Positions 7,973 through 23,599 are shown, counted from the first letter of the stretch. The stretch: DNA of 64,000 bases from an uncultured Methanomassiliicoccales archaeon (GCA_963695345.1 OY968769.1:480001-544000); one strand, 5' to 3'. Numbers and translations: made by a program. Notes: generated from the letters alone by a model not told the origin.

Positions 7973-9355
7973 ATGAGCGTCGTGGACAAGGCATTGACGG
8001 TCTATGAGACGTATCTCAGGTCCGAGAAAGGCACCAAAATGCCAGAGAGCCATTGGGACAACAAAGTGGTTCCCGAAACAGCGACCATGCTGAAGGAAAA
8101 ATACCAGATCAAGTTCGGATCAGAGATCATTCCCACCGACAAGAAGATGATCAAGAATCTGTACCTGGCCGGTCTCGAAATGCTTGTTACAACTGGCATC
8201 TACAACGCCGATACTAGCAGAGTGGTCAAGGTCACCGAGAGCGAAGTCAAGGAGGGCATCAAGAAGGCCCCGAAGAGGCTTAAGTTCGGCGAGTACCGTG
8301 ATTCCGCTTATATGGAGCCCAGAAAGGGCAACTCACCCCAGAAACCGATCATCCAGGGAGGGCCGACTGGAGCAACCGTTTCGGAGGATGTTTTCATCCC
8401 TATGATCCAGAGCTACGCTCAGGAACCGGTCATCGATACCATCGTCAACGGCGTTATGGCAACCATTGATGGCATGCCCGCCACCACAAACACGCCATTC
8501 GAGATCAAGGCCACTCTGGCGGAGATCCGCGCCATACGCGAGGCCTGCAATCGTGCCGGCAGACCCTATATGGGCATATAGGGTCCGGAGACCCCCCTCT
8601 CCGCTGCGGGGCGTCTTGCCAGCGATCTCAAGGATTGTCTGAAGCCCAGTGACAGTCATGAGGTCTCCCAGCTGAATGAGATGAAGATCGACAATTCCGC
8701 CCTCAACATGATAGCAGGGTGGCTGCACAATGGCGATACTATAATGGTGGAGCAGATGCCCATCTTCGGCGGCTACATCGGAGGAGTGGAGGAGACCGCG
8801 ATCTGCGACGTGGCCACGACCCTGACGTCATTCACGCTTCTGAACGCCTCATATCACCTGGACGGTCCAATTCACATCCGCTGGGGAATAACCACCGCAA
8901 AGGAGACGCTGACGATAGCGGCAAATGTCGCTGCCGCAATCGATATGAACACTGACCTGTTGATCGCCAACCAGTATTACCCAATAGCCGGCCCATGCAC
9001 CGAGATGTGCCTTCTGGAAACGGCTGCCCAGGCTATGGTGGATACGGCCAGCGGGAGGGAACTGGTTTCCGGTTGTGCCGCAGCCAAGGGAGTAGCGGAG
9101 GATTACACCACCGGAATGGAAGCCCGGATCATGGGAGAGGCAGCGATCGCCACCGCGGGAATGAAAATCGACGACGTGAACAAGATCCTCGATAACCTGG
9201 TCCGCGGTTATCAGAAATCGTTCCCCCGTGCACCCCAGGGAAAACGATTCCAAGAATGCTACAATGTAAAGAAGGTCCTTCCAAACAAGGAATATCTAGA
9301 GGTCTATGAAAGGACCTGTGTGGCACTGAGGAATCTTGGCCTCGATATCCAGTAA
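7973..9355 (+). CDS. mtmB: Monomethylamine:corrinoid methyltransferase (copy 1), Pyl at TAG 8579-8581
   Basis: ORFs 7973-8581 and 8681-9355 are one frame joined by TAG: AGRPYMGI-O-GPETPLS, the MtmB Pyl site. Also QGGPTG and HLDGPIHIRWG. Confidence 0.95.
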
Positions 9356-9612
9356 TGGATTGATCTTTCTTGTTCAATGGGAACATTCTTGGTCGTTCTT
9401 GGTGACACCACATTTTCTAGATTAAGACCATGGACGGTTCGATTTGACAAAGCCACTCAATCTGGACGGTCTTGATTATTGATGAAAAAATCAGTTTGGA
9501 GGCCCCATGCCCTTGCAGGGGACCCCCGAGGTGCGAAGAAAAAATTTGAGCTACAGAAGGGGTTTGGTTGGAGTAGTTTTCTATCTGGGGGGATAGACAT
9601 ATTCAGTGTAGC

Positions 9613-10992
9613 TCATTTCATATTCAGACCAAAGTTCCTCAAGGTCGCCTTTGCGCCGTCATATACCTTCAGATATTCATCTGTCGGCTTGACGGTCTTG
9701 ACATCGTAGCATTCCTGGAAGCGCTTGCCTGCCGGAGCCTTGTTGTAGCTCTTTTCGTAGCTGCTGATCAAGGTTTCCAGTACCTCGTTTACCTTGGATA
9801 TCTTCATACCTGCCGTCGCAATCGCCGCTTCGCCCATGATCCTAGCCTCCATGCCGGTGGTCTTGTCAATAACGACACCCTTGGCGGCCGCGGAACCAGA
9901 CAGCAGCTCACGTCCAGATGCGGTGTCGGTGATCGCCTGTGCGGCGGTCTCCAGCAGACACATCTCGGTGCATGGTCCTGCGATCGGATAGTACTGGTTG
10001 GCCAGCAACAGGTCGGTGTTGGCATCGATGGCCGCCGCCGCGTGAGCGGCGATCTGCAGGGTTTCCCTGGAGGTGGTTATGCCCCAGCGGATGTGGATCG
10101 GACCGTCCAGGTGGAAGTTGCCACTGAACAGCGAGAAGGAGGCCAGCGTCGTTGCGACATCGCAAATGGCTGTTTCCTCTATGCCGCCGCAGTATCCTCC
10201 GAAGATCGGCATCTGCTCCACCATTATGGTGTCGCCGTTCGCCGTCCATCCTGCGATCATGTTCAATCCGGCCATGTCGATCTTGAGCTCGTTTAGCTGC
10301 GATACCTCATGGGCGTCGCAGTTCCTCTGACCGCCAAGCAGGTCACCGGCGAGACGTCCCGCTGCGGACAGCGGGGTCTCTGGGCCCTATATGCCCATGT
10401 GCGGGCGGCCAGCGCGGATACGCGCCTCTCTGACTGCCCTCAGCTCGGCCATCGTGGCACGGATCTCCCAGGGCGTGTTGGTGGTGGCGGGGTGGCCCTC
10501 GATCGTGGCCATGACACCGTTCACCAGGTGATCAACGGTCGCCTCCTGGGCGTAGCTTTGCATGATCTGGATGAATACTTCTTCAGACACCGGAGCGCCG
10601 GTTGGGCCGCCCTGGATGATCGGCTTCCTGGCCTCGTTACCGTGACGCGGGACGAAATCGACGGCATCCTTATGCTCCCCGAGTACCAATTTCTTCGGGG
10701 TCTTCTTGATGCCTTCCCAGACCTCTTCCTCAGTGAGCGTGATGACTCTTCCCAGGTCTGAATTGTAGAACCCGCTGGTCACTAGCATGTCGAGACCTGC
10801 CTGGAACAGGCGGTTCATGAGGCCCTTGTCCTCTGGAATGATCTCTTTGCCGAATTGGATCTGGTATTTTTCCTTCATCAAAGCGGCGTTGGTCGGTATT
10901 ACCTTGTAGTCCCAATCCGCCTCTGGCAGTTTCTTACCGGCTTTCGAGCGCTCGTATGTCTCGAAGATATCGATTGGTCTTTGGGCTGACAT
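9613..10992 (-). CDS. mtmB: Monomethylamine:corrinoid methyltransferase (copy 2), Pyl at TAG 10389-10387
   Basis: AGRPHMGI-O-GPETPLS; paralog of copy 1 and convergent with it. Confidence 0.95.
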
Positions 10993-10997
10993 TTTGT

Positions 10998-11639
10998 TTA
11001 CCTCCCCATCATCTGGTTGACCAATGCCACTGCTTCAGCTCCCGAGGGGCAGTACATGTCCCCGCCGATGCTCTCTACCCATTCGGGGTTGCATGGCGCG
11101 CCTCCGAAGATCGTCTTGGCGACGACATTCTCTTCCTTCAGCATGATGACAATGTCCTTTTGAACGGTGACAGTGGTGGTCATCAGGGCGGATGCTCCGA
11201 CGATGTCGGCCTTCTTGTCACGGGCAGCCTCTATGAACTTCTCAGGCGACACATCCCTTCCAAGGTCGATAACGGTGTAGCCTCCGCCGCGTAGCATAGC
11301 GCCCACGACGTTCTTTCCTATCTCATGGATGTCACCCTGAACGGTTCCGATGACGATTATTCCCTTTGCGAGGGTTGTGCCCTTTGCCATCGCAGGTTCG
11401 AGAATCTTCAACGCAGATTCCATGGCAGTAGATGCGGCCAGAACCTGCGGTAGGTAAATCTTAGCCTCATCGAACAGTTGACTGATCATCTGCATGCCCA
11501 TGCCGAGCCCCTTTTCGACGGCTTCCGACGGGTCGATTCCGGCATCGAGAGCCTGTGCTGCGGATTGCTTAGCCAGTTCGATGTTCCACGTTTCGATTGA
11601 CTTTTTAAGGTTAGCCAATATCTCCTCTTTTTTTTCCAA
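10998..11639 (-). CDS. mtmC: Monomethylamine corrinoid protein (copy 2)
   Basis: GDIHEIGK; TTG start with AGGAGGAG RBS; upstream of mtmB copy 2. Confidence 0.9.
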   Translation of the reverse strand: MEKKEEILANLKKSIETWNIELAKQSAAQALDAGIDPSEAVEKGLGMGMQMISQLFDEAKIYLPQVLAASTAMESALKILEPAMAKGTTLAKGIIVIGTVQGDIHEIGKNVVGAMLRGGGYTVIDLGRDVSPEKFIEAARDKKADIVGASALMTTTVTVQKDIVIMLKEENVVAKTIFGGAPCNPEWVESIGGDMYCPSGAEAVALVNQMMGR

Positions 11640-11903
11640 TTTATTCTCCTCCTAGAAGAACGTGTTTTAATTGCAAAAGTATCATCTTCATTTTAGTATT
11701 AATAATTATGAGTAGCATTCGGATAGGTTAAAATATAGATATGTTGGGACTAAACAGCCTAAAAGATATCTTTATATATTAAATAATTAAGATGCTCCAA
11801 GCAAATAGCATAGTTTAAATATAATAAAACTTGATGCAAATGTAGGTGTTTGCTGAATATTCTCAGTAACGCCACCAAAATGCTGTATCAAGGGAGGAGC
11901 AAA
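11640..11903. promoter_or_regulatory. AT-rich divergent promoter region for mtmC2 and mtbC
   Basis: Very AT-rich with several TATA-like boxes (TTTATATA, TTTAAATA). Contains the TCATTTTAGTATTAATAATTATGAG motif also seen at 18011. Confidence 0.7.
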
Positions 11904-12554
11904 ATGAGCGGAAAAGGGGAATTAGCAAAAAAAGAGCTGTTTGATGCAATTGTTGCATATGACAAAGATAGAACACTTAAGAGTGTTGAAGTGGCGCGGA
12001 GCGTTCTGACTCCACAAGAAATCATCGATTCACTTGCAGCTGGTATGAATGAAGTTGGAATAAGATTCGAAAGAGGTCGCCTATTCCTTCCTCACGTAAT
12101 GGTGGCTGCAAGTGCAATGACCTCGGGAGTTGAGATCATAAAGCAAGACCTCCCGAAAGGTGAGGGCGGTAAGAGTCTTGGCGTTATTGTCACAGGGACA
12201 GTGGAAGGGGACGTACATGACATTGGTAAATCCATCGTCTCCACGATGCTACAGTGCGCCGGATATGAAGTTCATGATCTGGGTAGAGATGTCCCTACAA
12301 AGAACTTCATTGACACAATAAAGGAAAAGAAAGCAGACATGGTCGGTCTGTCCGCATTGATGACCACATCTATGCAGACCCAGCGGGAAGTCATCGAGAA
12401 TTTGGTAGAAATGAATTTGAGAAAGAATATTAAGGTCATGGTGGGTGGCGCGCCAGCAACTCAATCATGGGCGGACAAGATTGGCGCTGACGGTTATGGA
12501 GAGAACGCTAGTGAGGCGGTCAAGAAGGCCGGAGAACTCCTCAAGAAGAAGTGA
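11904..12554 (+). CDS. mtbC: Dimethylamine corrinoid protein
   Basis: LFLPHV, GDVHDIGK, SALMTT, VGGAP; GGAGG RBS before ATG 11904; upstream of mtbB. Confidence 0.9.
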   Translation: MSGKGELAKKELFDAIVAYDKDRTLKSVEVARSVLTPQEIIDSLAAGMNEVGIRFERGRLFLPHVMVAASAMTSGVEIIKQDLPKGEGGKSLGVIVTGTVEGDVHDIGKSIVSTMLQCAGYEVHDLGRDVPTKNFIDTIKEKKADMVGLSALMTTSMQTQREVIENLVEMNLRKNIKVMVGGAPATQSWADKIGADGYGENASEAVKKAGELLKKK

Positions 12555-12585
12555 GAAATGCCAGTGTTCAAGGAGGTAAGAGAAA

Positions 12586-13993
12586 ATGTCAAACGAATAT
12601 GCGCTTAGAATGGGAGATGGCAAGAGAGTCTATCTTTCTAAGAAACAGATTGTGGATGATGTTACCGCCGGTTCGGAAGATGCTGCAGATCTTGGGAGCA
12701 TCCCAACCATGAGCTCCGAGGACATGGAAAGGCTCGTGGAAATTCTGATGATGCCTGGGAGAATGGTGGGCGTTGAGCATGGGATGGAAGTGCCGGTTAC
12801 TCATGATATCGGAACTATCCGCCTAGATGGAGATCAGGGTAACAGCGGAGTCGGAATTCCCTCCAGCAGATTGGTCGGAATGATGACACATGAACGGGCT
12901 CTAGGGGCAGACTCTATGGAACTTGGTCACATCGACTATAGTTTCAAACCAGTCAAACCGGTGATCGCCCAAGAGATGCAGACGATGGAGATCGTCCAGC
13001 AGAACATGATTGTTCCGGTGCTTTACGGTGCGATGCCGAACATGGGCCTCTATTATCGCCCTGATGGTCCCTTTGACAACCCTGGTGACCTCATGAAGGC
13101 CTTCAAAATCGAGGAGGCTCAGAGATCGACAGAGCATGCCGCAGAGCATTTGACACGCGACATGATCTGGGTAATGCAGAGAATTATGAAATCAGGATCA
13201 GATGGAGTCAACTTTGACACTACTGCGGCTGCGGGAGATGGCGATTTCTTTGCCACACTCAATGCGATCGAAGTATTGAGGAAGGAATTCCCAGAAATGT
13301 ATATAGAATCCGGTATGGCTGGAGAGCTTGTACTTGGAATGCATGGAGAACTAAAGTACAAAGGTGAGACCCTTGCCGGCATGTGGCCTCATCAACAGGC
13401 AAAAATGGTGGCCAAGGCTGGTTCTAACATTTTTGGCCCGGTGGTCAATACCAACACCAGCAAGTCAGGTGCCTGGAACCTGGGAAGGGCCGTCACCTTC
13501 GTGAAAGCTGCGGTTAAGGCATCTCCAATACCTTGTCACGTAAACATGGGGATGGGCGTCGGCGGAATACCGATGTTTGAGACCCCCACGATTGATGCGG
13601 TCTCCCATGCTAGCAAGGCGATGGTCGAGATCGCCCATGTCGACGGCATATAGGTTGGGGTCGGCGACCCGATGGGTATGCCGATCACACACGTAATGAC
13701 GTCCGGAATGAGTGGACTCAGGGCAGCAGGCGATCTGGTCTGTAGGATGGAGTTTGCGAAAAGCATGAGAATCAACGCAGGCGAAGGAGTTCGTTGCCAA
13801 GAAGGTGGGAGTCGACACCGTGGACCTCAGCGACGAATTTGTCATGCGAGATATCAGAGAGAGTCTCGGAATTGGCGTAGTTACCTCAGTTGCAGGAGCG
13901 CCGAAAGGCATTGCAGCCAAGATGAACATAGAAAAATTATTGGGCATCAAGATCAACTGCTGCGAAAAGTTCAGGGCACAGGTGAAGAAGTAG
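12586..13993 (+). CDS. mtbB: Dimethylamine:corrinoid methyltransferase, Pyl at TAG 13651-13653; one frameshift near 13778 (probably a sequence error)
   Basis: [29 protein letters not shown] (codon 356). Removing one base at AAC-GCAG-GCG restores [10 protein letters not shown]. Ends TAG TAA. Confidence 0.92.
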
Positions 13994-14020
13994 TAAAAAA
14001 TCAAACGCTTAATCTATCTA

Positions 14021-14074
14021 TCTCTGGACCAGCTTCTAACTGTTAATTACCTTAGGTCCAGAGAGCGGTTTTTT
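14021..14074 (+). terminator. Hairpin plus T-tract between mtbB and mtbP
   Basis: TCTCTGGACC (14021-30) pairs with GGTCCAGAGA (14055-64), followed by GCGGTTTTTT. Confidence 0.55.
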
Positions 14075-14108
14075 CTACATTCAGTGGAGGAGAGAGGAGG
14101 GGTGATTC

Positions 14109-15590
14109 ATGGTTGATATTCAAGAAGGAGGAGGTAGTCCTATGGAAACCGAGTCGAAAAAAGGGAATTCGAACGAACTACAAAGGACTATAGATTGGAA
14201 ACAAGGATTAATGATAGCTGTTGGCGTACCATTGTTGATATTGCCATCGATTGGCTATACTGCAAGTTATCTTTGGGCAGCTGCGATAATACTCTGGGTG
14301 GCATCGGTTCTTCAGGGATTCATGCAGAATATTGCCTATGGAGAAATGGCGACGGCGTTCCCCAAAGCATCAGGGTTGCCTGGTTTTGCCCAAGCTGTAT
14401 TTAAAACAAATAATAATGTAAATAAATATGATAGAGGAAAGTTAATCGGCGGATTCAGCGCCTGGGGCTATTGGTTTGCCTGGAATCCGGTATTGGCGAT
14501 CTTTTCATTGACAATCGCAAGCTATCTGCAGGGTATGATTCCGGCATTGGCTGATTACGATTTCGTGTCATTAGCCTTAGTTTGTGGGGCGTTAATATTC
14601 GTGGCCTTAATTCTCATAAACATGAAAGGATTGGCGAACGGCGCCAGGATCGGATTGATTCTAGCAGTAGTGTCTCTTATCCCGTTGATTGTAATCTCGA
14701 TAGCGCCATTTGCCACTGGTGATTTCAACGTTTCGAATATCACTAACAACTTGGTGCCCACGGGTTGGACGTGGGATTGGCAACATATTCTGATAATCTT
14801 TGGTCTATTTGCCATCGCCCAATGGAGTGCGTGCGCGTGGGAGACTGCGGCAATTTATGGACCACAATACAAGAAACCTGGTTCGGATGTGCCCAAAGCA
14901 CTATTCACCTGTGGGATAATTTGCTTAATTATCTTTGCCCTTGTTCAGACATCTGTGACTGGTACACTGGGCATTGATGGCATTCTTGCACAACCGGTCT
15001 CGCCCCTAGTACCCATGGCTGAAACGACATTTGGCTCGCTCGGTTCATCTGTCATGATTGTCATGCTCGTAGCTGCAATGATCTTGATAATCCAGACGGC
15101 GTTCCTGGGCTCTGCAACGTCGATGCACTCCATGGCGTCTGAAGGAAATCTTCCAAAATTCTTCAGCAAGTTGAACTCAAGTGGAGTTCCAGTTCGGGCA
15201 ATGATCGCAATTGCACTATTCAATATGGCACTGATCTCTCTGAAGACCCCGACCGCAATATTAGCCGCCTCAGCGATTGGATACACTTGCGCCAACGGAA
15301 TCAGCCTTTTTGCGTATGTCAAGGCGAAGAGGGATCCAGAGCTAAAGAAGTTGAATAGGCCGTTCAAGGCACCACGGGGCTGGACATATGTTGCCCTTGC
15401 ATTCGGGCTGTTCAACATTCCACTCTGTCTAATTGGTGTCATGTATCTGAACAGTCTAGAAAGTGGGATAACGGCAATCATTGTCGGAGTTATCGTTCTT
15501 GCAGCCTATTTGCCGATCTGGTTCTGGTCTCAGCATAAGAATTCAGAACTCCAAGAAAAAGAGGGAGTAATGGAGGCGGCTGAGGAGTAA
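14109..15590 (+). CDS. mtbP: APC-family permease, probable dimethylamine permease
   Basis: About 12 TM helices; ELQRTIDWKQG, YGEMATAFP, RPFKAP; follows mtbB. Alternative start at MET-ESK. Confidence 0.8.
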   Translation: MVDIQEGGGSPMETESKKGNSNELQRTIDWKQGLMIAVGVPLLILPSIGYTASYLWAAAIILWVASVLQGFMQNIAYGEMATAFPKASGLPGFAQAVFKTNNNVNKYDRGKLIGGFSAWGYWFAWNPVLAIFSLTIASYLQGMIPALADYDFVSLALVCGALIFVALILINMKGLANGARIGLILAVVSLIPLIVISIAPFATGDFNVSNITNNLVPTGWTWDWQHILIIFGLFAIAQWSACAWETAAIYGPQYKKPGSDVPKALFTCGIICLIIFALVQTSVTGTLGIDGILAQPVSPLVPMAETTFGSLGSSVMIVMLVAAMILIIQTAFLGSATSMHSMASEGNLPKFFSKLNSSGVPVRAMIAIALFNMALISLKTPTAILAASAIGYTCANGISLFAYVKAKRDPELKKLNRPFKAPRGWTYVALAFGLFNIPLCLIGVMYLNSLESGITAIIVGVIVLAAYLPIWFWSQHKNSELQEKEGVMEAAEE

Positions 15591-15968
15591 ACAGGCATTG
15601 AATTGAGAGTTCTATGGACAGAAATGACTGTCCATTCTAAATCATTTTCATCCCTTTACGATAAAATGTATCAAAATGATGAGAGTTAAGAATGGATGGA
15701 ATTCGTTCGCTAATTTGATCAGGAAGGAAAAATCTGGAGAGGAATGCCTTCAACAATTCTGTCCATAACAATTCATGGGATGATGCATGGGAACGTTTTC
15801 GAACAATAGGCTCGCCCGGTCTTCTTTGGACTTGTTATTTCATGTAGACAATCACCAAAATGGAAGCCGTTCATAGCCGAGAGGATTAGATGGTGTCTGA
15901 TCCGGCCACCGTGAAGGCGGCATACTGACAAATATGGAATTAGAATTGAGATAAGATGCATCCATAAT

Positions 15969-17601
15969 TGTCAGCGCCGGTTGAAAATTCACCAGATTTG
16001 AAGGCTGTCCCATTATTGAGTTTTCAGAGTGCCGGTTGAATTTTTACTATCAAATTTGTTCGATATCTTAACGCCTGTTGAGTAAGATCCAACCGGCCGT
16101 TCCTCTTCTGACAGAATCAGGTCCGCAGTCCGATCCTATTGGTCCATAGCTTCCTCAGGTTATGGCCCATACAAGCCAGCGTCCACTCGCTCCTTACTCT
16201 TCTTAAACCCTTACAGAAGAATTCTCGCACTCCGCGATTCTCTTTGATGTTTCCGAAGAAGCACTCGACGGTGCGACTTCGCCTGGAGAAGATGGCATGA
16301 CCCTCATCGGTGAGCAGCTTGGCCGCCATCTCCTCCATGACCGTTGGGGCTCGTTTCTTGATCCGTGGCGGGCGTTTCATCCTGGTGTCGTAGCTTAACT
16401 GGGTGACGATGTACAGGTCGACTCCGTCGCCCTGTTCGACCATTGGAGTATTGAAGTAGCCAGCATCGGCCAGAAGTTTTTCAGGCCGTCTGTCCTTAAA
16501 TTTCTCAATCTCGTCCAACATCGGCAACAGCTGATTCATATCGTTGCAGTCCTGGACGGCGACCTCGGCTACGATTACCTGGCTGTCGCAATCGACCACC
16601 GCCTGAGCATTGTACGCCTGGGCGTATCCGTTCTGAGTAATCATGATCCTGCACTCTTGGTCCGATGGATTCCTCCGCTCTGATCTCTTCTCGAGCTCCA
16701 TCTTCGACTTCCTGCTCCTGACCTTCCTCCCCTTCGCTGCCCATTCTTCCTCCAGGCGGAGCCGTTCCTCGATCTTCGCCTTCTGTTCCGCTTCCGCCTT
16801 CTCCTCTGCCTCCTTGAGCTGGCGGAGTGTATCGGCGATACGCTGCCTCCTTCCATCCCTGCGTCTCAGGGACGGCGGCAACGGATTCCCGTCATCATCG
16901 CCAAGTCGATCATCCTCGTCTTTATCGGCCTTTCCGCCTCTTTCATTATCCGATCGATCCTCTCGTCGATCTCGTCTAGCTCCTTCTGCAGGTCCTCCTT
17001 CTCCATGTTCTTCTAGATGTTCGCGTTCGCCTTGATCTTCGTTCCATCCAGTGAAACAACCTGGAGATCGGCTAGACCTTCTTCCGCGCAGAGCTGGACG
17101 ACCTGGCGGAACGCTTCCGCATGCTCGGTGCGGAAGCGGCAGATTGTTCTGAAATCGGGAAAGTTATTTGATGCCAGCACACGGAACGCAATATTCTCCC
17201 TCGTTGCTAAAAGAGATCTGTCTGGATGATCGAAGGCCTAAGCTGTAGGCATAGGCCAATATCTTGACCATCATCTTCGGGTCGTAGGGCGGGTAGCCAG
17301 GTGCTGGGGCATATCGGGCATAGATCGATGCCAGGTCCGGTTCATCGATCACTTCGGAGATGAAGTAGGCCAGATGATCCTCGGGTAGCCATTCATGAAG
17401 GTCCGGAGGCAATAAAAGCGTCTGGTCGGGATCGTATCGACGGAACGTCTTTTTCCGAGCTGGCATGATATCATTCACGCCATCTGAATTTATTTAAAAA
17501 TTGTAACCAGATTTGTTACTAAATCCAAATATAAATTAGTCAGAATCTATATAAAACTGTGACAGTCTCCAGAAATGGATAAAATTCAACTGCCACTAAC
17601 A
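15969..17601 (-). mobile_element. Degenerate IS: IS21-like termini enclosing an IS1182-family transposase
   Basis: Imperfect terminal IRs TGTCAGCGCCGGTTGAAAATT / TGTTAGTGGCAGTTGAATTTT; subterminal repeat GTGCCGGTTGAATTTT near 16029; flanks ATAAT / ATCAT (possible 5-bp target duplication). Confidence 0.65.
16117..17478 (-). pseudogene. IS1182-family transposase, disrupted (frameshifts and an in-frame TAG at 17015-17013)
   Basis: QTLLLPPDLHEWLPEDHLAYFI, PYDPKMMVKILAYAY, DGTKIKANA, YNAQAVVD, LADAGY, RSRTVECFFGNIK spread over several frames. Confidence 0.85.
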
Positions 17602-17959
17602 ATCATGAGCGAAAAAACTGAACGACAATAGTATAATATCCGTTAACATGATCATAAATGCGGAGGAAAATGATCGAGCTAGAGAAGATATTTGGTCCAT
17701 CAAGTCAGTAGTAATTGAATAGGAAGGACGATTAAAAATTCCTTACTATGATTATCTATTGGAATATGATGATTAGTTTAGAGAAGAATATTGTGACCCA
17801 TTGGATTGGAGTTCACGGCAGATGTGGTGATTTTTGTTCTTTACCGATTGGCCATTTAGGGCCTCCTCTCTCCTTTGCCATTCTAAAGACGTTCAGGATT
17901 GTACCAGATAAAACCGTCGGCCGTTGGGTGAAATAGGAAGTAATGAAGAAGATGCTCGT

Positions 17960-18130
17960 CTAGGTTCCTAAACATAATCCTAGGAGGTCAGATGAACGAT
18001 GAAACACTATTCATTTACTATAAATAATTATGAGGTATTAAAAGAATGATTTATATACTGATGTTACAAGACTTAACAGTCAATAGGTTAAATTTATATA
18101 TAATAAATTAAAGAGGAAGTCAATGTCTAA
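17960..18130 (+). promoter_or_regulatory. AT-rich promoter region of the mtbB'-mttBCP operon
   Basis: TATA-like TTTATATA boxes and blocks shared with 11688-11790. Confidence 0.55.
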
Positions 18131-18199
18131 TAATATTTATATATAAAGAATCTCGATACTCGAATAGACGTTAATCAAGTCACAATCGATGTCAGGTGG

Positions 18200-18640
18200 A
18201 TGGGCGTCGGCGGAATACCGATGTTCGAGACCCCGACGATCGATGCGGTCTCCCATGCTATCAAGGCAATGGTCGAGATCGCTCATGTCGATGGAATATA
18301 GGTTGGGGTCGGCGACCCTATGGGTATGCCGATCGAACACGTCATGACATCCGGTATGAGCGGACTGCGCGCAGGCGGAGATTTGGTCGCACGCATGGAA
18401 TTCGCCATGAGCATGCGCCTGAAGGATGCCAAGGAATACGTGGCTAAGAAGCTGGGAGTGAACCCGATGGACCTGAGCAACGAACATGCCATGAGAGAGG
18501 TCAGGGAAGCGTTCGGCCTGGGCGTCATCACCTCGGTGGCGGGTGCCCCGAAGGAGATAGCAGCGAAGATGAACATCGAAAAGGCGCTGGACATCGAGAT
18601 TAACTGCTGCGAGAAGTTCAGGAACCAGCTGAAGAAGTGA
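18200..18640 (+). pseudogene. mtbB: 5'-truncated second mtbB (C-terminal ~146 codons) retaining the Pyl TAG at 18299-18301
   Basis: [17 protein letters not shown]...[15 protein letters not shown]...INCCEKF; homology to mtbB starts abruptly at 18198. Confidence 0.85.
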
Positions 18641-18697
18641 GAATAGCCGGAACTAGCGATGAATAATTTGGTGGATTAAAGAAAGGAGGAGAAAACA

Positions 18698-20185
18698 ATG
18701 GGACAACACTACTACCCCGGAAGGGATAGATTGGAGGGCGTAAAGCTCGAGATGTTCAATACGGACGATCTCAGGCAGATCGATTACGCCAGTATGGAAG
18801 TGCTGCTGAACCCTGGCGTACAGGTTTCTGATGTAGAGGCAAGGAAGCTCTTCAAGGAAGCCGGATGCGAGGTCAACGAATCGACCAGGATCGTCAAGAT
18901 CCCCCAGTGGTTGGTCCGCAAGGCATTGATGATGGCGCCCTCGAAGTTCTATCTATACGGAAGGGACAAGAAGAACACAGTCCCCCAGGAACACAAAGGC
19001 AAGGTCCACTGGACCTGCTTCGGTACTGGGATCAAGATGTGTAACTACCTTGGACCAGGCAACTTCAAGACCGTCGACTCGACCGAGAAGGACGTCGCCA
19101 ACACCGCGAAGATCGTTGACTGGGCGGAGAACGTGGATTACTACTCACTGGCAGTGTCCGCAAGGGACTGGGCAGGAAAGGGCGCACAGGACGTGCACGA
19201 GACCCTCACCTCGCTGTCCAACACCACGAAGCACTTCCAGCACATCGACCCCGTCGGAGGCAACGTCGAATTCTACTGGGAAATCGCCAAGGCCTACTAC
19301 GGTGGCAACGAGGAGATGGCCCGCGCTAAGCCGATATTCTCGATGCTGCTATGCCCGACCAGCCCGCTGGAGCTGAGCTCCAACGCCTGTCAGGTCATCA
19401 TCAAGGGCGCCAGGTTCGGAATCCCGGTCAACGTCCTGAGCATGGCCATGTCCGGAGGGTCCTCGCCGATATTCCTGGCCGGTACCCTTGTCACCCACAA
19501 CGCCGAGGTGTTGGCAGGCATCACCCTGTCCCAGATCGCCCAGCCGGGCGCAAAGGTCTGGTACGGAAGCTCCACCACCACCTTCGACGTCAAGAGGGGA
19601 ACCGCTCCGGTAGGTTCACCAGAACTCGGAATGATCAGCGCCGCTGTGGCCAAACTTGGACAGTACTACGGACTGCCCACGTTCGTGGCGGGCATATAGG
19701 CTGACGCCAAGATACCTGATGTACAGGCAGGTCACGAGAAGACCATAACGACCCTTCTCCCCGCCCTCGCCGGTGCTAACACCATCTATGGTGCAGGTAT
19801 GCTTGAACTTGGCATGACATTCTCGATGGAGCAGCTTGTAATCGACAACGACATAATCGCCATGACGAAGAAAGTGATGTCCGGGATCCCGGTAAACGAG
19901 GAGACCATGGGAGTGGAATCGATCCAGAAGGTTGGAATCGGCAACAACTTCCTGGGACACAAGTCGACCAGGGCGAACATCAACCTACCGTCGGACCCGA
20001 TGCTGATCAACAGGGACATGATCGGAGACTGGACCGCGGCCGGATCGAAGGATCTGATAACCGTGGCCCACGAGAAGGTCCTGAACATCATGAAGACCCA
20101 CGAGGTAACACCAATCGACGCCGACCTGCACAAGGACATGGTCGCGATCATGAACAAGGCGGACAAGGCGTTCCAGGGTAACTAA
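18698..20185 (+). CDS. mttB: Trimethylamine:corrinoid methyltransferase, Pyl at TAG 19697-19699
   Basis: ORFs 18698-19699 and 19799-20185 joined in frame: [16 protein letters not shown] (codon 334); CPTSPL, HNAEVL, GHEKT; strong RBS. Confidence 0.96.
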
Positions 20186-22443: not shown

Positions 22444-22662
22444 CGCATGGAAGGTATCTACCTGACGAAAGAACTGAGACCACAAACCCTTTCCCCATCT
22501 TTCCTTTCAATATACTATCAACAGACCGGGGCTCAGAAAATAATGAAAGAGACAAACCCGATATCATCGCCGGAATTCACCTATCCTGGATCAGAGCCAG
22601 ATAGCAAAGAAAACCTTAAATTCGGAGTCGTTCATCAATCCTTAGCTGAGCAATCTCACAAT

Positions 22663-22733
22663 GGAGGGTTGGTCAGGGACCGCCGGGCCTCTACAGCTAT
22701 GGCAGCCGGGTTCGATTCCCGGGCCCTTCGCCA
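22663..22733 (+). tRNA. pylT: tRNA-Pyl (anticodon CUA)
   Basis: Acceptor GGAGGGT/GCCCTTC + G + CCA; D-stem GGTC/GACC with 3-nt loop; interrupted anticodon stem with CT-CTA-CA loop (CTA at 22691-93); T-arm CCGGG-TTCGATT-CCCGG; directly upstream of pylS. Confidence 0.93.
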
Positions 22734-22771
22734 CTATTCTCAACGCATCCTCTTACCCCGAGGTGGATAGG

Positions 22772-23599
22772 ATGCCGATTATCTGGACCTCTTCCCAATC
22801 CCAGAGAATTCGAGAGCTGGGCGGGGAACCCAAGCAGAATGAGGAGTTCCCCACGGAGGAAGAGAGGGAGAAAGCTTTCTCGGTGCTAATCGAGAAGCTT
22901 CAATCTCAACACCGAAAGATGATCCGCGATCTCTCCGCCAATCCCCGCAGGCACCAGCTTGCCGAGCTGGAGGGTTCTTTGGCCAACATGCTTGTGGGCA
23001 AGGGATTCCTCGAAGTAAGGACTCCTACCATCATTTCCTACGAGGCCCTCAGGAAGATGGGGATCACGAAGGAGCACCCCCTCTACGAACAGGTCTTCTG
23101 GCTTGATGAGAAGAGGTGCCTGCGGCCGATGCTGGCACCCAACCTGTACTTTCTCATGAGACAACTGAAACGGAACGTGAAGATGCCGTTGATGATGTTC
23201 GAGATCGGGACCTGTTACCGCAAGGAGTCACACGGCAATTCTCACCTCGAGGAGTTTACCATGCTGAACCTCGTGGAGATGAGGCCGGACATTGACGCGA
23301 CAGAGCGGTTGAGAGAGCATATCGTGTCCGTCATGGACCTCATCGGCCTGAGATATGAACTGGTGGCCGCCGAGTCCGAGGTATATGTCAGCACCATCGA
23401 TGTGGAGGTCGGTGGTGTGGAGGTCGCATCGGGCGCGGTTGGACCCCATGTCCTTGACAAGGCCCACGGGATCACAGACCCATGGGCGGGAGTGGGGTTC
23501 GGGTTGGAACGCCTGCTTCTGATGAAGAGCGGCGACCTGAACATCAAGAAGGTGGGTCGGAGCCTGATCTACCTCAACGGAGCTAGGATCGATATCTGA
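22772..23599 (+). CDS. pylS: Pyrrolysyl-tRNA synthetase, catalytic domain only (no N-terminal domain), 275 aa
   Basis: LRPMLAPNLY, FEIGTCYRKE, HLEEFTMLNLVE, PWAGVGFGLERL; GAGGTGG RBS before ATG 22772. Confidence 0.95.
   Translation: MPIIWTSSQSQRIRELGGEPKQNEEFPTEEEREKAFSVLIEKLQSQHRKMIRDLSANPRRHQLAELEGSLANMLVGKGFLEVRTPTIISYEALRKMGITKEHPLYEQVFWLDEKRCLRPMLAPNLYFLMRQLKRNVKMPLMMFEIGTCYRKESHGNSHLEEFTMLNLVEMRPDIDATERLREHIVSVMDLIGLRYELVAAESEVYVSTIDVEVGGVEVASGAVGPHVLDKAHGITDPWAGVGFGLERLLLMKSGDLNIKKVGRSLIYLNGARIDI

Follow-up and report, generated by a model that had tools for sequence, protein, structure and literature searches.

Synonymous codon selection immediately upstream of pyrrolysine UAG codons in archaeal methylamine methyltransferase genes

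Results

Five Pyl codons at a Methanomassiliicoccales locus

A 64,000-nucleotide stretch of DNA from an uncultured Methanomassiliicoccales archaeon (GCA_963695345.1 OY968769.1:480001-544000), which we call the window and whose positions are counted from its first letter, carries mtmB, mtbB and mttB, the genes of the monomethylamine, dimethylamine and trimethylamine methyltransferases, in which an in-frame TAG is read as pyrrolysine (Pyl). This study concerns the codons around that TAG, chiefly the codon directly before it (-1) and the one before that (-2), and shows that in archaea both are subject to a synonymous preference. The source genome is a single contig of 2.56 Mb with 56% GC, 85% complete and carrying indels. 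The Pyl contexts, read directly from the DNA, have exactly the GGN-ATA-TAG-G sequences and the positions given for them in an earlier reading of the window (the original prediction), and lie in the following genes.

7973..9355, + strand: mtmB1, monomethylamine methyltransferase gene with one in-frame TAG (Pyl203); open frame with TAG read as O
8573..8584, + strand: mtmB1 Pyl context, GGC (-2) ATA (-1, 8576-8578) TAG (8579-8581) GGT (+1)
9613..10992, - strand: mtmB2, paralogue of mtmB1 (68% identity) with one in-frame TAG (Pyl202)
10384..10395, - strand: mtmB2 Pyl context, GGC ATA (10392-10390) TAG (10389-10387) GGC
12586..14046, + strand: mtbB, dimethylamine methyltransferase gene with an in-frame TAG (Pyl356), frameshifted as assembled
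13645..13656, + strand: mtbB Pyl context, GGC ATA (13648-13650) TAG (13651-13653) GTT
18200..18640, + strand: C-terminal mtbB fragment (profile positions 321-463) with its own TAG; 85% DNA identity to the 3' end of mtbB
18293..18304, + strand: fragment Pyl context, GGA ATA (18296-18298) TAG (18299-18301) GTT
18698..20185, + strand: mttB, trimethylamine methyltransferase gene with an in-frame TAG (Pyl334)
19691..19702, + strand: mttB Pyl context, GGC ATA (19694-19696) TAG (19697-19699) GCT

With family matches that run across a single in-frame TAG at the conserved Pyl position, these genes belong to the Pyl-dependent MtmB, MtbB and MttB families. The mtmB1 product matches Pfam MtmB over the whole profile (1-450 of 450, 760.8 bits, spanning the TAG) and the M. 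barkeri MtmB1 chains at 510 bits, and the mttB product matches Pfam MTTB at 30-494 of 500 across the TAG and the solved MttB chain 7xcm at 833 bits. The mtmB1 TAG aligns with a lysine (K) of solved M. barkeri MtmB1 (1tv2/1l2q) and the mttB TAG with a K of 7xcm, and we take the K at this position as a stand-in for Pyl; no solved relative was found for MtbB. Orthologues of mtmB, mtbB and mttB have one TAG each, in the same alignment column.

The mtbB product matches Pfam Dimeth_Pyl only at 1-396 of 463, with a separate piece in another frame, because of a 1-nt frameshift: aligned with the 85%-identical fragment at 18200-18640, mtbB has one extra base near 13776, and the frame-corrected gene (region 13770-13996) would end in AAG AAG TAG TAA at about 13991-13996. 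Since the genome is 85% complete and another gene also looks frameshifted, this is probably an assembly indel error and not the mark of a pseudogene. The fragment itself corresponds to the C-terminal third of mtbB, sits immediately upstream of mttB and has the appearance of a leftover from duplication or rearrangement. No further copies of mtmB, mtbB or mttB were found elsewhere in the source genome, and the best four TAG read-through candidates for additional Pyl genes were rejected as adjacent genes or spurious open reading frames (ORFs), with no domain spanning the TAG.

In keeping with the three families that the original prediction counted as independent, the five sites provide three independent observations: mtmB2 is a paralogue of mtmB1, and the fragment is a partial copy of mtbB. 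The prediction was also right that ATC is the commoner Ile codon: with the -1 site left out, ATA makes up 6/34, 5/33, 3/22, 2/10 and 6/31 of the Ile codons of mtmB1, mtmB2, mtbB, the fragment and mttB (14-20%), and 21.4% genome-wide. Because the two mtmB sites and the two mtbB sites are not independent, the chance of the pattern within the window was computed on three sites and comes to about 0.005 (~0.18 x 0.14 x 0.19), given Ile at -1.

The -1 and -2 codons in archaeal relatives

Pyl genes were gathered from two archaeal groups. For the window's own order the sample was 121 genomes per search, along with 79 named loci from the best 80, nearly all Methanomassiliicoccales; for a second archaeal class, which holds the JdFR-19 genome and is presumed to be Methanosarcina-type, it was 151 genomes per search, plus further genes added. 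Removal of identical sequences left 362 unique archaeal Pyl genes, with the following codons at -1.

mtmB, order (115): ATA 68, ATC 4, GTN 37, ATG 4, CTC 1, TCA 1
mtmB, second class (51): ATA 34, GTT 11, GTC 6
mtmB, outgroups (5): ATT 3, ATA 1, GTT 1
mtbB, order (31): ATA 18, ATC 2, ATT 2, GTN 9
mtbB, second class (75): ATA 71, ATT 2, TTT 1, TTA 1
mtbB, outgroup (1): GTA 1
mttB, order (37): ATG 20, ATA 9, GTN 8
mttB, second class (45): Ser or Thr codons 40, GCA 2, GGA 1, ATA 1, ATG 1
mttB, outgroups (2): ACT 2

At the protein level, a motif with a small residue, mostly Gly, at -2 and Ile, Val or Met at -1 recurs in all three families. Almost every mtbB and mttB gene has Gly at -2, and in mtmB this position is taken by Gly, Ala, Ser or Cys. 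In non-Pyl MtmB paralogues of the Methanosarcina-type class, Leu-Met or Met-Met replaces Ile/Val-Pyl, and the GP motif around it is retained. A 2.3-Mb contig of a metagenome-assembled genome (MAG) labelled Caenibius (Alphaproteobacteria) also carries an mtmB of archaeal type, which contains a Pyl TAG and is 69% identical to the gene in the window; this points to mis-binning or mislabelling.

Where the -1 residue is Ile, as it is in 215 of the 362 genes, its codon is ATA in 202, ATC in 6 and ATT in 7. The original prediction had proposed a comparison with the Ile usage of each gene, and this gives 42.1 expected ATA codons for the 202 observed, which shows that ATA is selected and does not follow background usage. 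It had also considered that orthologues might freely use other codons or residues at -1, and this is borne out in one half only: ATC and ATT are rare when the residue is Ile, but other residues stand at -1 in 147 of the 362 genes, a share that does not fit an obligatory signal of the kind of the selenocysteine insertion sequence (SECIS).

Because relatedness inflates naive statistics, the controls were the remaining Ile-majority columns of these alignments, which share the tree of the -1 column. The -1 column has the highest ATA share in all four datasets in which Ile is its majority residue, first of 27, 29, 24 and 28 Ile-majority columns, with 68/72 (0.94) in mtmB of the order, 34/34 (1.00) in mtmB of the class, 18/22 (0.82) in mtbB of the order and 71/73 (0.97) in mtbB of the class, whereas in the other Ile columns the medians are 0.06-0.22 and the maxima 0.35-0.60. 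Ranked by per-column synonymous bias, it comes first or second of 355-429 columns for mtmB and mtbB in both groups. Pairs of genes below 70% amino acid identity share their Ile codon at -1 in 87% of cases for mtmB and 73% for mtbB, compared with 46-48% at other Ile columns, and divergent MtbB paralogues (41-56% identity) with different +1 codons have ATA in 7/9, one of them without any other ATA.

The bias is specific to the following UAG. Ile before a Tyr TAY codon is ATA in 247/1150 cases (21.5%) in the source genome and in 47/220 (21.4%) in the orthologous genes, that is, without bias, and a preference that holds generally wherever TA follows is ruled out by this control; in non-Pyl MtmB homologues with Ile at the matching site, the codon is ATC in 3/3.

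These controls bear directly on the possibility that nothing beyond protein conservation and inheritance is at work, with ATA frozen by descent or arising as a by-product of CTAG avoidance or nucleotide bias. Related sequences are indeed not independent, and a single transition turns ATA into ATG or into GTA, two codons that are found at -1; yet the other Ile columns, on the same tree, have been randomised, and Ile before TAY is unbiased. An ATC-TAG junction does create CTAG, which is mildly under-represented in the source genome (observed/expected 0.68), but ATT creates none, makes up 28-32% of second-class Ile codons and is nevertheless used at -1 in only 2/107 cases there, while GTC-TAG, TCC-TAG and ACC-TAG are common and 108/357 terminal TAGs follow C. 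We therefore rejected CTAG avoidance as the reason against ATC, ATT being avoided too, C-ending codons common and the depletion of CTAG as slight as it is. By the column and TAY controls this whole explanation is already largely refuted, and we consider it scarcely credible.

Selection is visible in other codons as well. Val at -1 is encoded by GTT 32, GTC 23 and GTA 18 times and by GTG in 0/73, against a GTG background of 15%. At -2, the share of GGY among Gly codons ranks first of about 40 Gly columns in 4/6 datasets, second in one and eighth in one. The GGN that the original prediction saw at -2 thus reflects a GGY codon preference in archaea, but it is mainly a conserved Gly and not a nucleotide signal only.

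A different codon before Pyl in presumed bacterial MtbB

Metagenome contigs were scanned with a pattern that imposes nothing on the -1 and +1 codons, and at least 122 stretches were returned; among the matches listed, to which all counts for this sample refer, 101 have an open frame of at least 150 codons and 84 of these have Leu at -1. The sample consists of MtbB from metagenomes only, and the Leu-type genes, 52-68% identical to archaeal MtbB, are presumed to be bacterial from GC contents up to 0.72.

The Leu codon at -1 is TTG in 73, TTA in 6, CTG in 4 and CTT in 1 of the 84, with 11.2 TTG expected from the codon usage of each gene, and the -1 column comes first of 12 Leu columns (85/90). 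In genes with GC content at third codon positions (GC3) of at least 0.75, TTG or TTA stands at -1 in 25/25, against a background of 4%, and TTG alone in 22/25; that TTG is kept there although TTG to CTG is a synonymous transition again speaks against mere inheritance. The -2 Gly of Leu-type MtbB prefers GGR, the opposite of the archaeal GGY. Agmatidine, which modifies the archaeal tRNA that reads AUA and had been put forward as the basis of the context, is not supported as a general mechanism, since presumed bacterial MtbB is equally biased, to Leu UUG.

Across these samples there is, then, strong synonymous-codon selection on top of the protein motif: Ile is AUA, Leu is UUG (sometimes UUA), Val is never GUG and Gly, in archaea, is GGY.

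Several of the chosen codons are minor ones, which raises the possibility that a slow codon is what counts, a pause one codon before UAG spacing the ribosomes or letting a downstream hairpin refold. ATA is a minority Ile codon in these genes (10-24%), TTG and TTA together make up 4% of the Leu codons of the high-GC genes, the major Val codon GTC is depleted at -1 (32% vs 55%), and ribosome profiling of M. acetivorans, in the text available, describes pausing at UAG that depends on the transcript (PMC13663744). Rarity, however, does not predict the codon that is used: in mtmB of the order, ATT (10%) is rarer than ATA (24%) and is found in 0/72, so the chosen codon is not the rarest; GTG (15%) is as rare as GTA and GTT and is found in 0/73; TTA is rarer than TTG, yet TTG wins by 73 to 6; and the GGY codons at -2 are not rare. 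If decoding paused while AUA was in the A site, moreover, the pause would be over before UAG arrives there. We regard a slow-codon explanation as improbable.

Terminal TAGs and the base after the Pyl codon

In its strict form, the original prediction held that AUA in the P site, read by tRNA-Ile2 carrying agmatidine, together with a G directly after UAG (+4) would be the signal for Pyl insertion as opposed to termination. All five window sites fit this, and in two families of the order (f1 and f6), where TAG stops come to about 16-17%, ATA precedes the Pyl codon in 28/28 genes from all three enzyme families. The agmatidine side chain is described, in the available portion of one paper, as reaching the nucleotide 3' of AUA in the A site (PMC11938285); cryo-electron microscopy of the related ava2C tRNA-Ile2, from the same portion, shows the contact with the next nucleotide in the A site and none in the P site (PMC11938285), and direct contact between agmatidine and UAG is to that extent unsupported.

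The contrast with terminal TAGs does not hold up as evidence. A crude ORF set of the source genome comprises 2058 ORFs, with 1324 TGA, 377 TAA and 357 TAG stops. Its window portion has nine terminal TAGs besides the N-terminal parts of four Pyl genes, and 0/9 follow ATA. The statement that no terminal TAG follows ATA agrees with this count but has no weight: ATA ends only about 1% of genes, so its absence before 13 terminal TAGs is uninformative (P = 0.87). Genome-wide, ATA is the last sense codon of 18/1701 genes ending in TGA or TAA and of 1/353 genes that truly end in TAG; the four further ORFs with ATA before TAG are the Pyl genes themselves. In the source genome the depletion of ATA before true terminal TAGs has the right direction but p = 0.23, and among Ile-final genes it is 1/12 vs 18/73 (p = 0.28).

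Nor does ATA separate Pyl codons from stops in relatives. The solved M. barkeri proteins, with proven Pyl, have Val (MtmB1) and Ser (MttB) at -1, and a third family of the order (f7) has ATA in only 12/64 Pyl genes, the rest using Met, Val, ATC or ATT.

The proposed +4 G fares no better. The +1 codon is highly variable, specifying Gly in mtmB, Val or Ile in mtbB and any of Thr, Ser and Ala in mttB, and G at +4 is accordingly not conserved: the base is A in most second-class mtbB, and in most mttB it is A or T. Among terminal TAGs, moreover, G is the most frequent following base (147/357 in the source genome). The +4 G plays no part in the context. With presumed bacteria showing the same kind of bias for Leu UUG, we hold the strict form to be very improbable. 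What survives of the proposal that ATA before a Pyl TAG forms a context is a selected codon tied to UAG; the +4 G, the contrast with stops and the generality of the rule do not.

The downstream element

Models of the pyrrolysine insertion sequence (PYLIS; Rfam RF01982 PYLIS_1, RF02509 PYLIS_2 and RF02510 PYLIS_3) describe another cis context at the same mtmB, mtbB and mttB UAGs, and their matches in the window are these.

8579..8678, + strand: PYLIS_1-like stretch from the mtmB1 TAG; Rfam 62.6 bits, below the gathering threshold of 70
10290..10389, - strand: PYLIS_1-like stretch from the mtmB2 TAG; Rfam 60.8 bits, below the gathering threshold of 70
13651..13750, + strand: PYLIS_2 match from the mtbB TAG; Rfam 84.2 bits, gathering threshold 36
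18299..18398, + strand: PYLIS_2 match from the TAG of the mtbB fragment; Rfam 80.6 bits, gathering threshold 36
19697..19796, + strand: PYLIS_3 match from the mttB TAG; Rfam 99 bits, gathering threshold 38

By gathering score and a start at the UAG, mtbB, the fragment and mttB thus qualify as having PYLIS elements and the two mtmB genes do not. These elements raise the alternative that the -1 and -2 codons belong to an mRNA-level element, either a 5' extension of a PYLIS-type signal or a factor site, read as nucleotides whatever tRNA decodes them. Synonymous constraint does extend beyond -1, with the 9-codon windows at +1 to +12 being the most constrained stretch of mtmB and mtbB; PYLIS_2 and PYLIS_3 score above gathering right at the TAGs; and the -2 preference that differs by domain (GGY vs GGR) could reflect different partners. 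In mtmB there is also a hairpin, GAGAC...GTCTC (GAGAC...GTCTT in mtmB1), 6 nt after the TAG (window 8585-8625, + strand, and 10345-10381, - strand), for which 80% of cells in alignment columns 40-69 are paired, against 33-56% in slid controls.

The hairpin shows only two compensatory cells, however, and is kept mainly by sequence conservation. RNAalifold predicted no consensus pair on 30 mtmB sequences, the minimum-energy folds leave ATA unpaired at 5/5 window sites and do not improve on shuffled sequences (z +0.09 to -1.6); an RNA structure that includes ATA was rejected on the RNAalifold result and the single folds. All three Rfam models start at the TAG and run 100 nt downstream, leaving the -1 and -2 codons outside. 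With ATA unpaired, no consensus pairs and models that begin at the TAG, the upstream codons are not part of the known downstream element. GGY-AUA is, furthermore, common to three families whose downstream sequences are unrelated. An mRNA-level element seems to us unlikely as the source of the upstream preference.

Pyl machinery in the source genome

The window also carries a gene for the pyrrolysyl-tRNA synthetase.

22880..23596, + strand: pylS, pyrrolysyl-tRNA synthetase, C-terminal catalytic type, inside ORF 22661-23599; NCBIfam TIGR02367, 288.7 bits (cut-off 178)

A TiaS_FLD domain is found at source genome positions 1230779-1231114 (128.7 bits). ARAGORN and Rfam in window positions 6000-30000, and ARAGORN genome-wide, found no pylT in this assembly, which is 85% complete and carries indels. 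The genome-wide ARAGORN run on the same error-prone assembly also returned no tRNA-Ile and only one CAU tRNA, though ATA makes up 21% of Ile codons and the genome has both pylS and TiaS; tRNA genes may have been damaged by assembly errors or may have unusual introns.

Discussion

The reading that we favour, and hold to be somewhat more probable than its negation, is that the two codons before a Pyl UAG form a lineage-tuned efficiency context that acts through the P-site and E-site codons or their tRNAs, on top of a protein motif. The context is neither an obligatory insertion signal nor a switch between Pyl and stop. Selection would act during decoding: with UAG in the A site, the P site would hold the -1 codon with its tRNA, and the E site the -2 pair. 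In archaea the P-site tRNA would be agmatidine-bearing tRNA-Ile2, in bacteria a tRNA-Leu that reads UUG, and the identity of the codon-tRNA pairs in the two sites could shift the balance at UAG between Pyl-tRNA, release factor and slippage. Tuning by codon and tRNA is the simplest account because the constraint is specific to the codon and to UAG and differs between archaea and presumed bacteria.

Several observations weigh against this account. The P-site effect is known here from its evolutionary footprint, a matter of codon choice and not of read-through, and the structural work on ava2C cited above sees no contact in the P site. The Val and Ser of the M. barkeri proteins and the loose usage of family f7 count here as they do against the strict form; in second-class mttB, Ser or Thr stands at -1 with no synonymous constraint near the UAG. 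ATT is found in mtmB and mtbB of a JdFR-19-like lineage and in mtmB of two Hadarchaeota MAGs, and seems to stand in for ATA before Pyl in particular lineages. We see no one rule behind AUA, UUG and the avoidance of GUG: the preferred codon is not the rarest, nor is any base fixed at -1. The bacterial label of the UUG genes is a presumption from GC content, and the shortage of ATA at terminal TAGs does not reach significance.

Use of TAG as a stop might be expected to matter for such a context. With the crude ORF caller, TAG ends 17% of genes in the source genome, 23/141 (16%) in the ATA-strict family f6 and 12/157 (8%) in f7 (p = 0.03), a difference that would suit a role in release-factor competition. 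Methanosarcina is reported, in the accessible part of one source, with about 4-5% TAG stops (PMC4153887). The idea that strict ATA tracks TAG-stop use was set aside, and no reliance is placed on it, because the Methanosarcina-type class is strict in mtmB and mtbB despite the few TAG stops reported for Methanosarcina; this too tells against our preferred account.

A bolder version would make the -1 and -2 codons the first natural, widely conserved cis determinant of Pyl insertion, a particular P-site tRNA weakening release-factor action or favouring the accommodation of tRNA-Pyl; we offer it tentatively, as a possibility that we do not expect to hold. If it were true, organisms that use UAG as a stop would get efficient read-through exactly where it is needed.

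Codons that precede a stop are known from classical work on termination and suppression in E. coli and yeast to matter for its outcome. Such 5' codon-context effects, which extend to mammalian cells, alter the competition between release factor and suppressor tRNA and were measured in reporters or at engineered sites, whereas what we describe is a preference among synonyms that natural selection maintains beside native Pyl codons in two archaeal classes, with another codon taking its place in presumed bacteria, and that is known from sequence alone. In selenocysteine decoding a stop codon is likewise read as a rare amino acid with cis help from the mRNA, but there the SECIS structure in the RNA is indispensable and has an elongation factor of its own to read it, and the AUA/UUG context is not obligatory. 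For Pyl no dedicated factor is known, according to the sections available of one paper (PMC12626013).

As usually understood, PYLIS, whose role is disputed, makes Pyl insertion more efficient but is not required for it. Its elements are downstream and family-specific; the preference described here is upstream, spans two codons across unrelated families and looks codon- or tRNA-specific rather than structural. As far as the available parts of reviews and primary papers go, two recent PNAS papers among them, PYLIS elements are described as poorly conserved and no conserved cis cue for Pyl is known (PMC9499178, PMC1976440). A 2026 ribosome-profiling paper, in the text available, goes no further than to allow that local codon context may play a part, and the terms "AUA" and "isoleucine" are absent from it (PMC13663744). 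The full-text literature searched, as represented by the main texts and exclusive of Zhang et al. 2005 (JBC) and Longstaff et al. 2007 (Mol Microbiol), makes no mention of the upstream codon in the parts available.

How UAG is read as pyrrolysine here and as a stop there has been an open question since 2002, and a UAG-specific synonymous constraint on the two preceding codons gives a concrete and cheaply testable handle on it. Amber suppression with PylRS/tRNA-Pyl pairs could take the preference into account when flanking codons are chosen, and Pyl genes could be predicted better with it.

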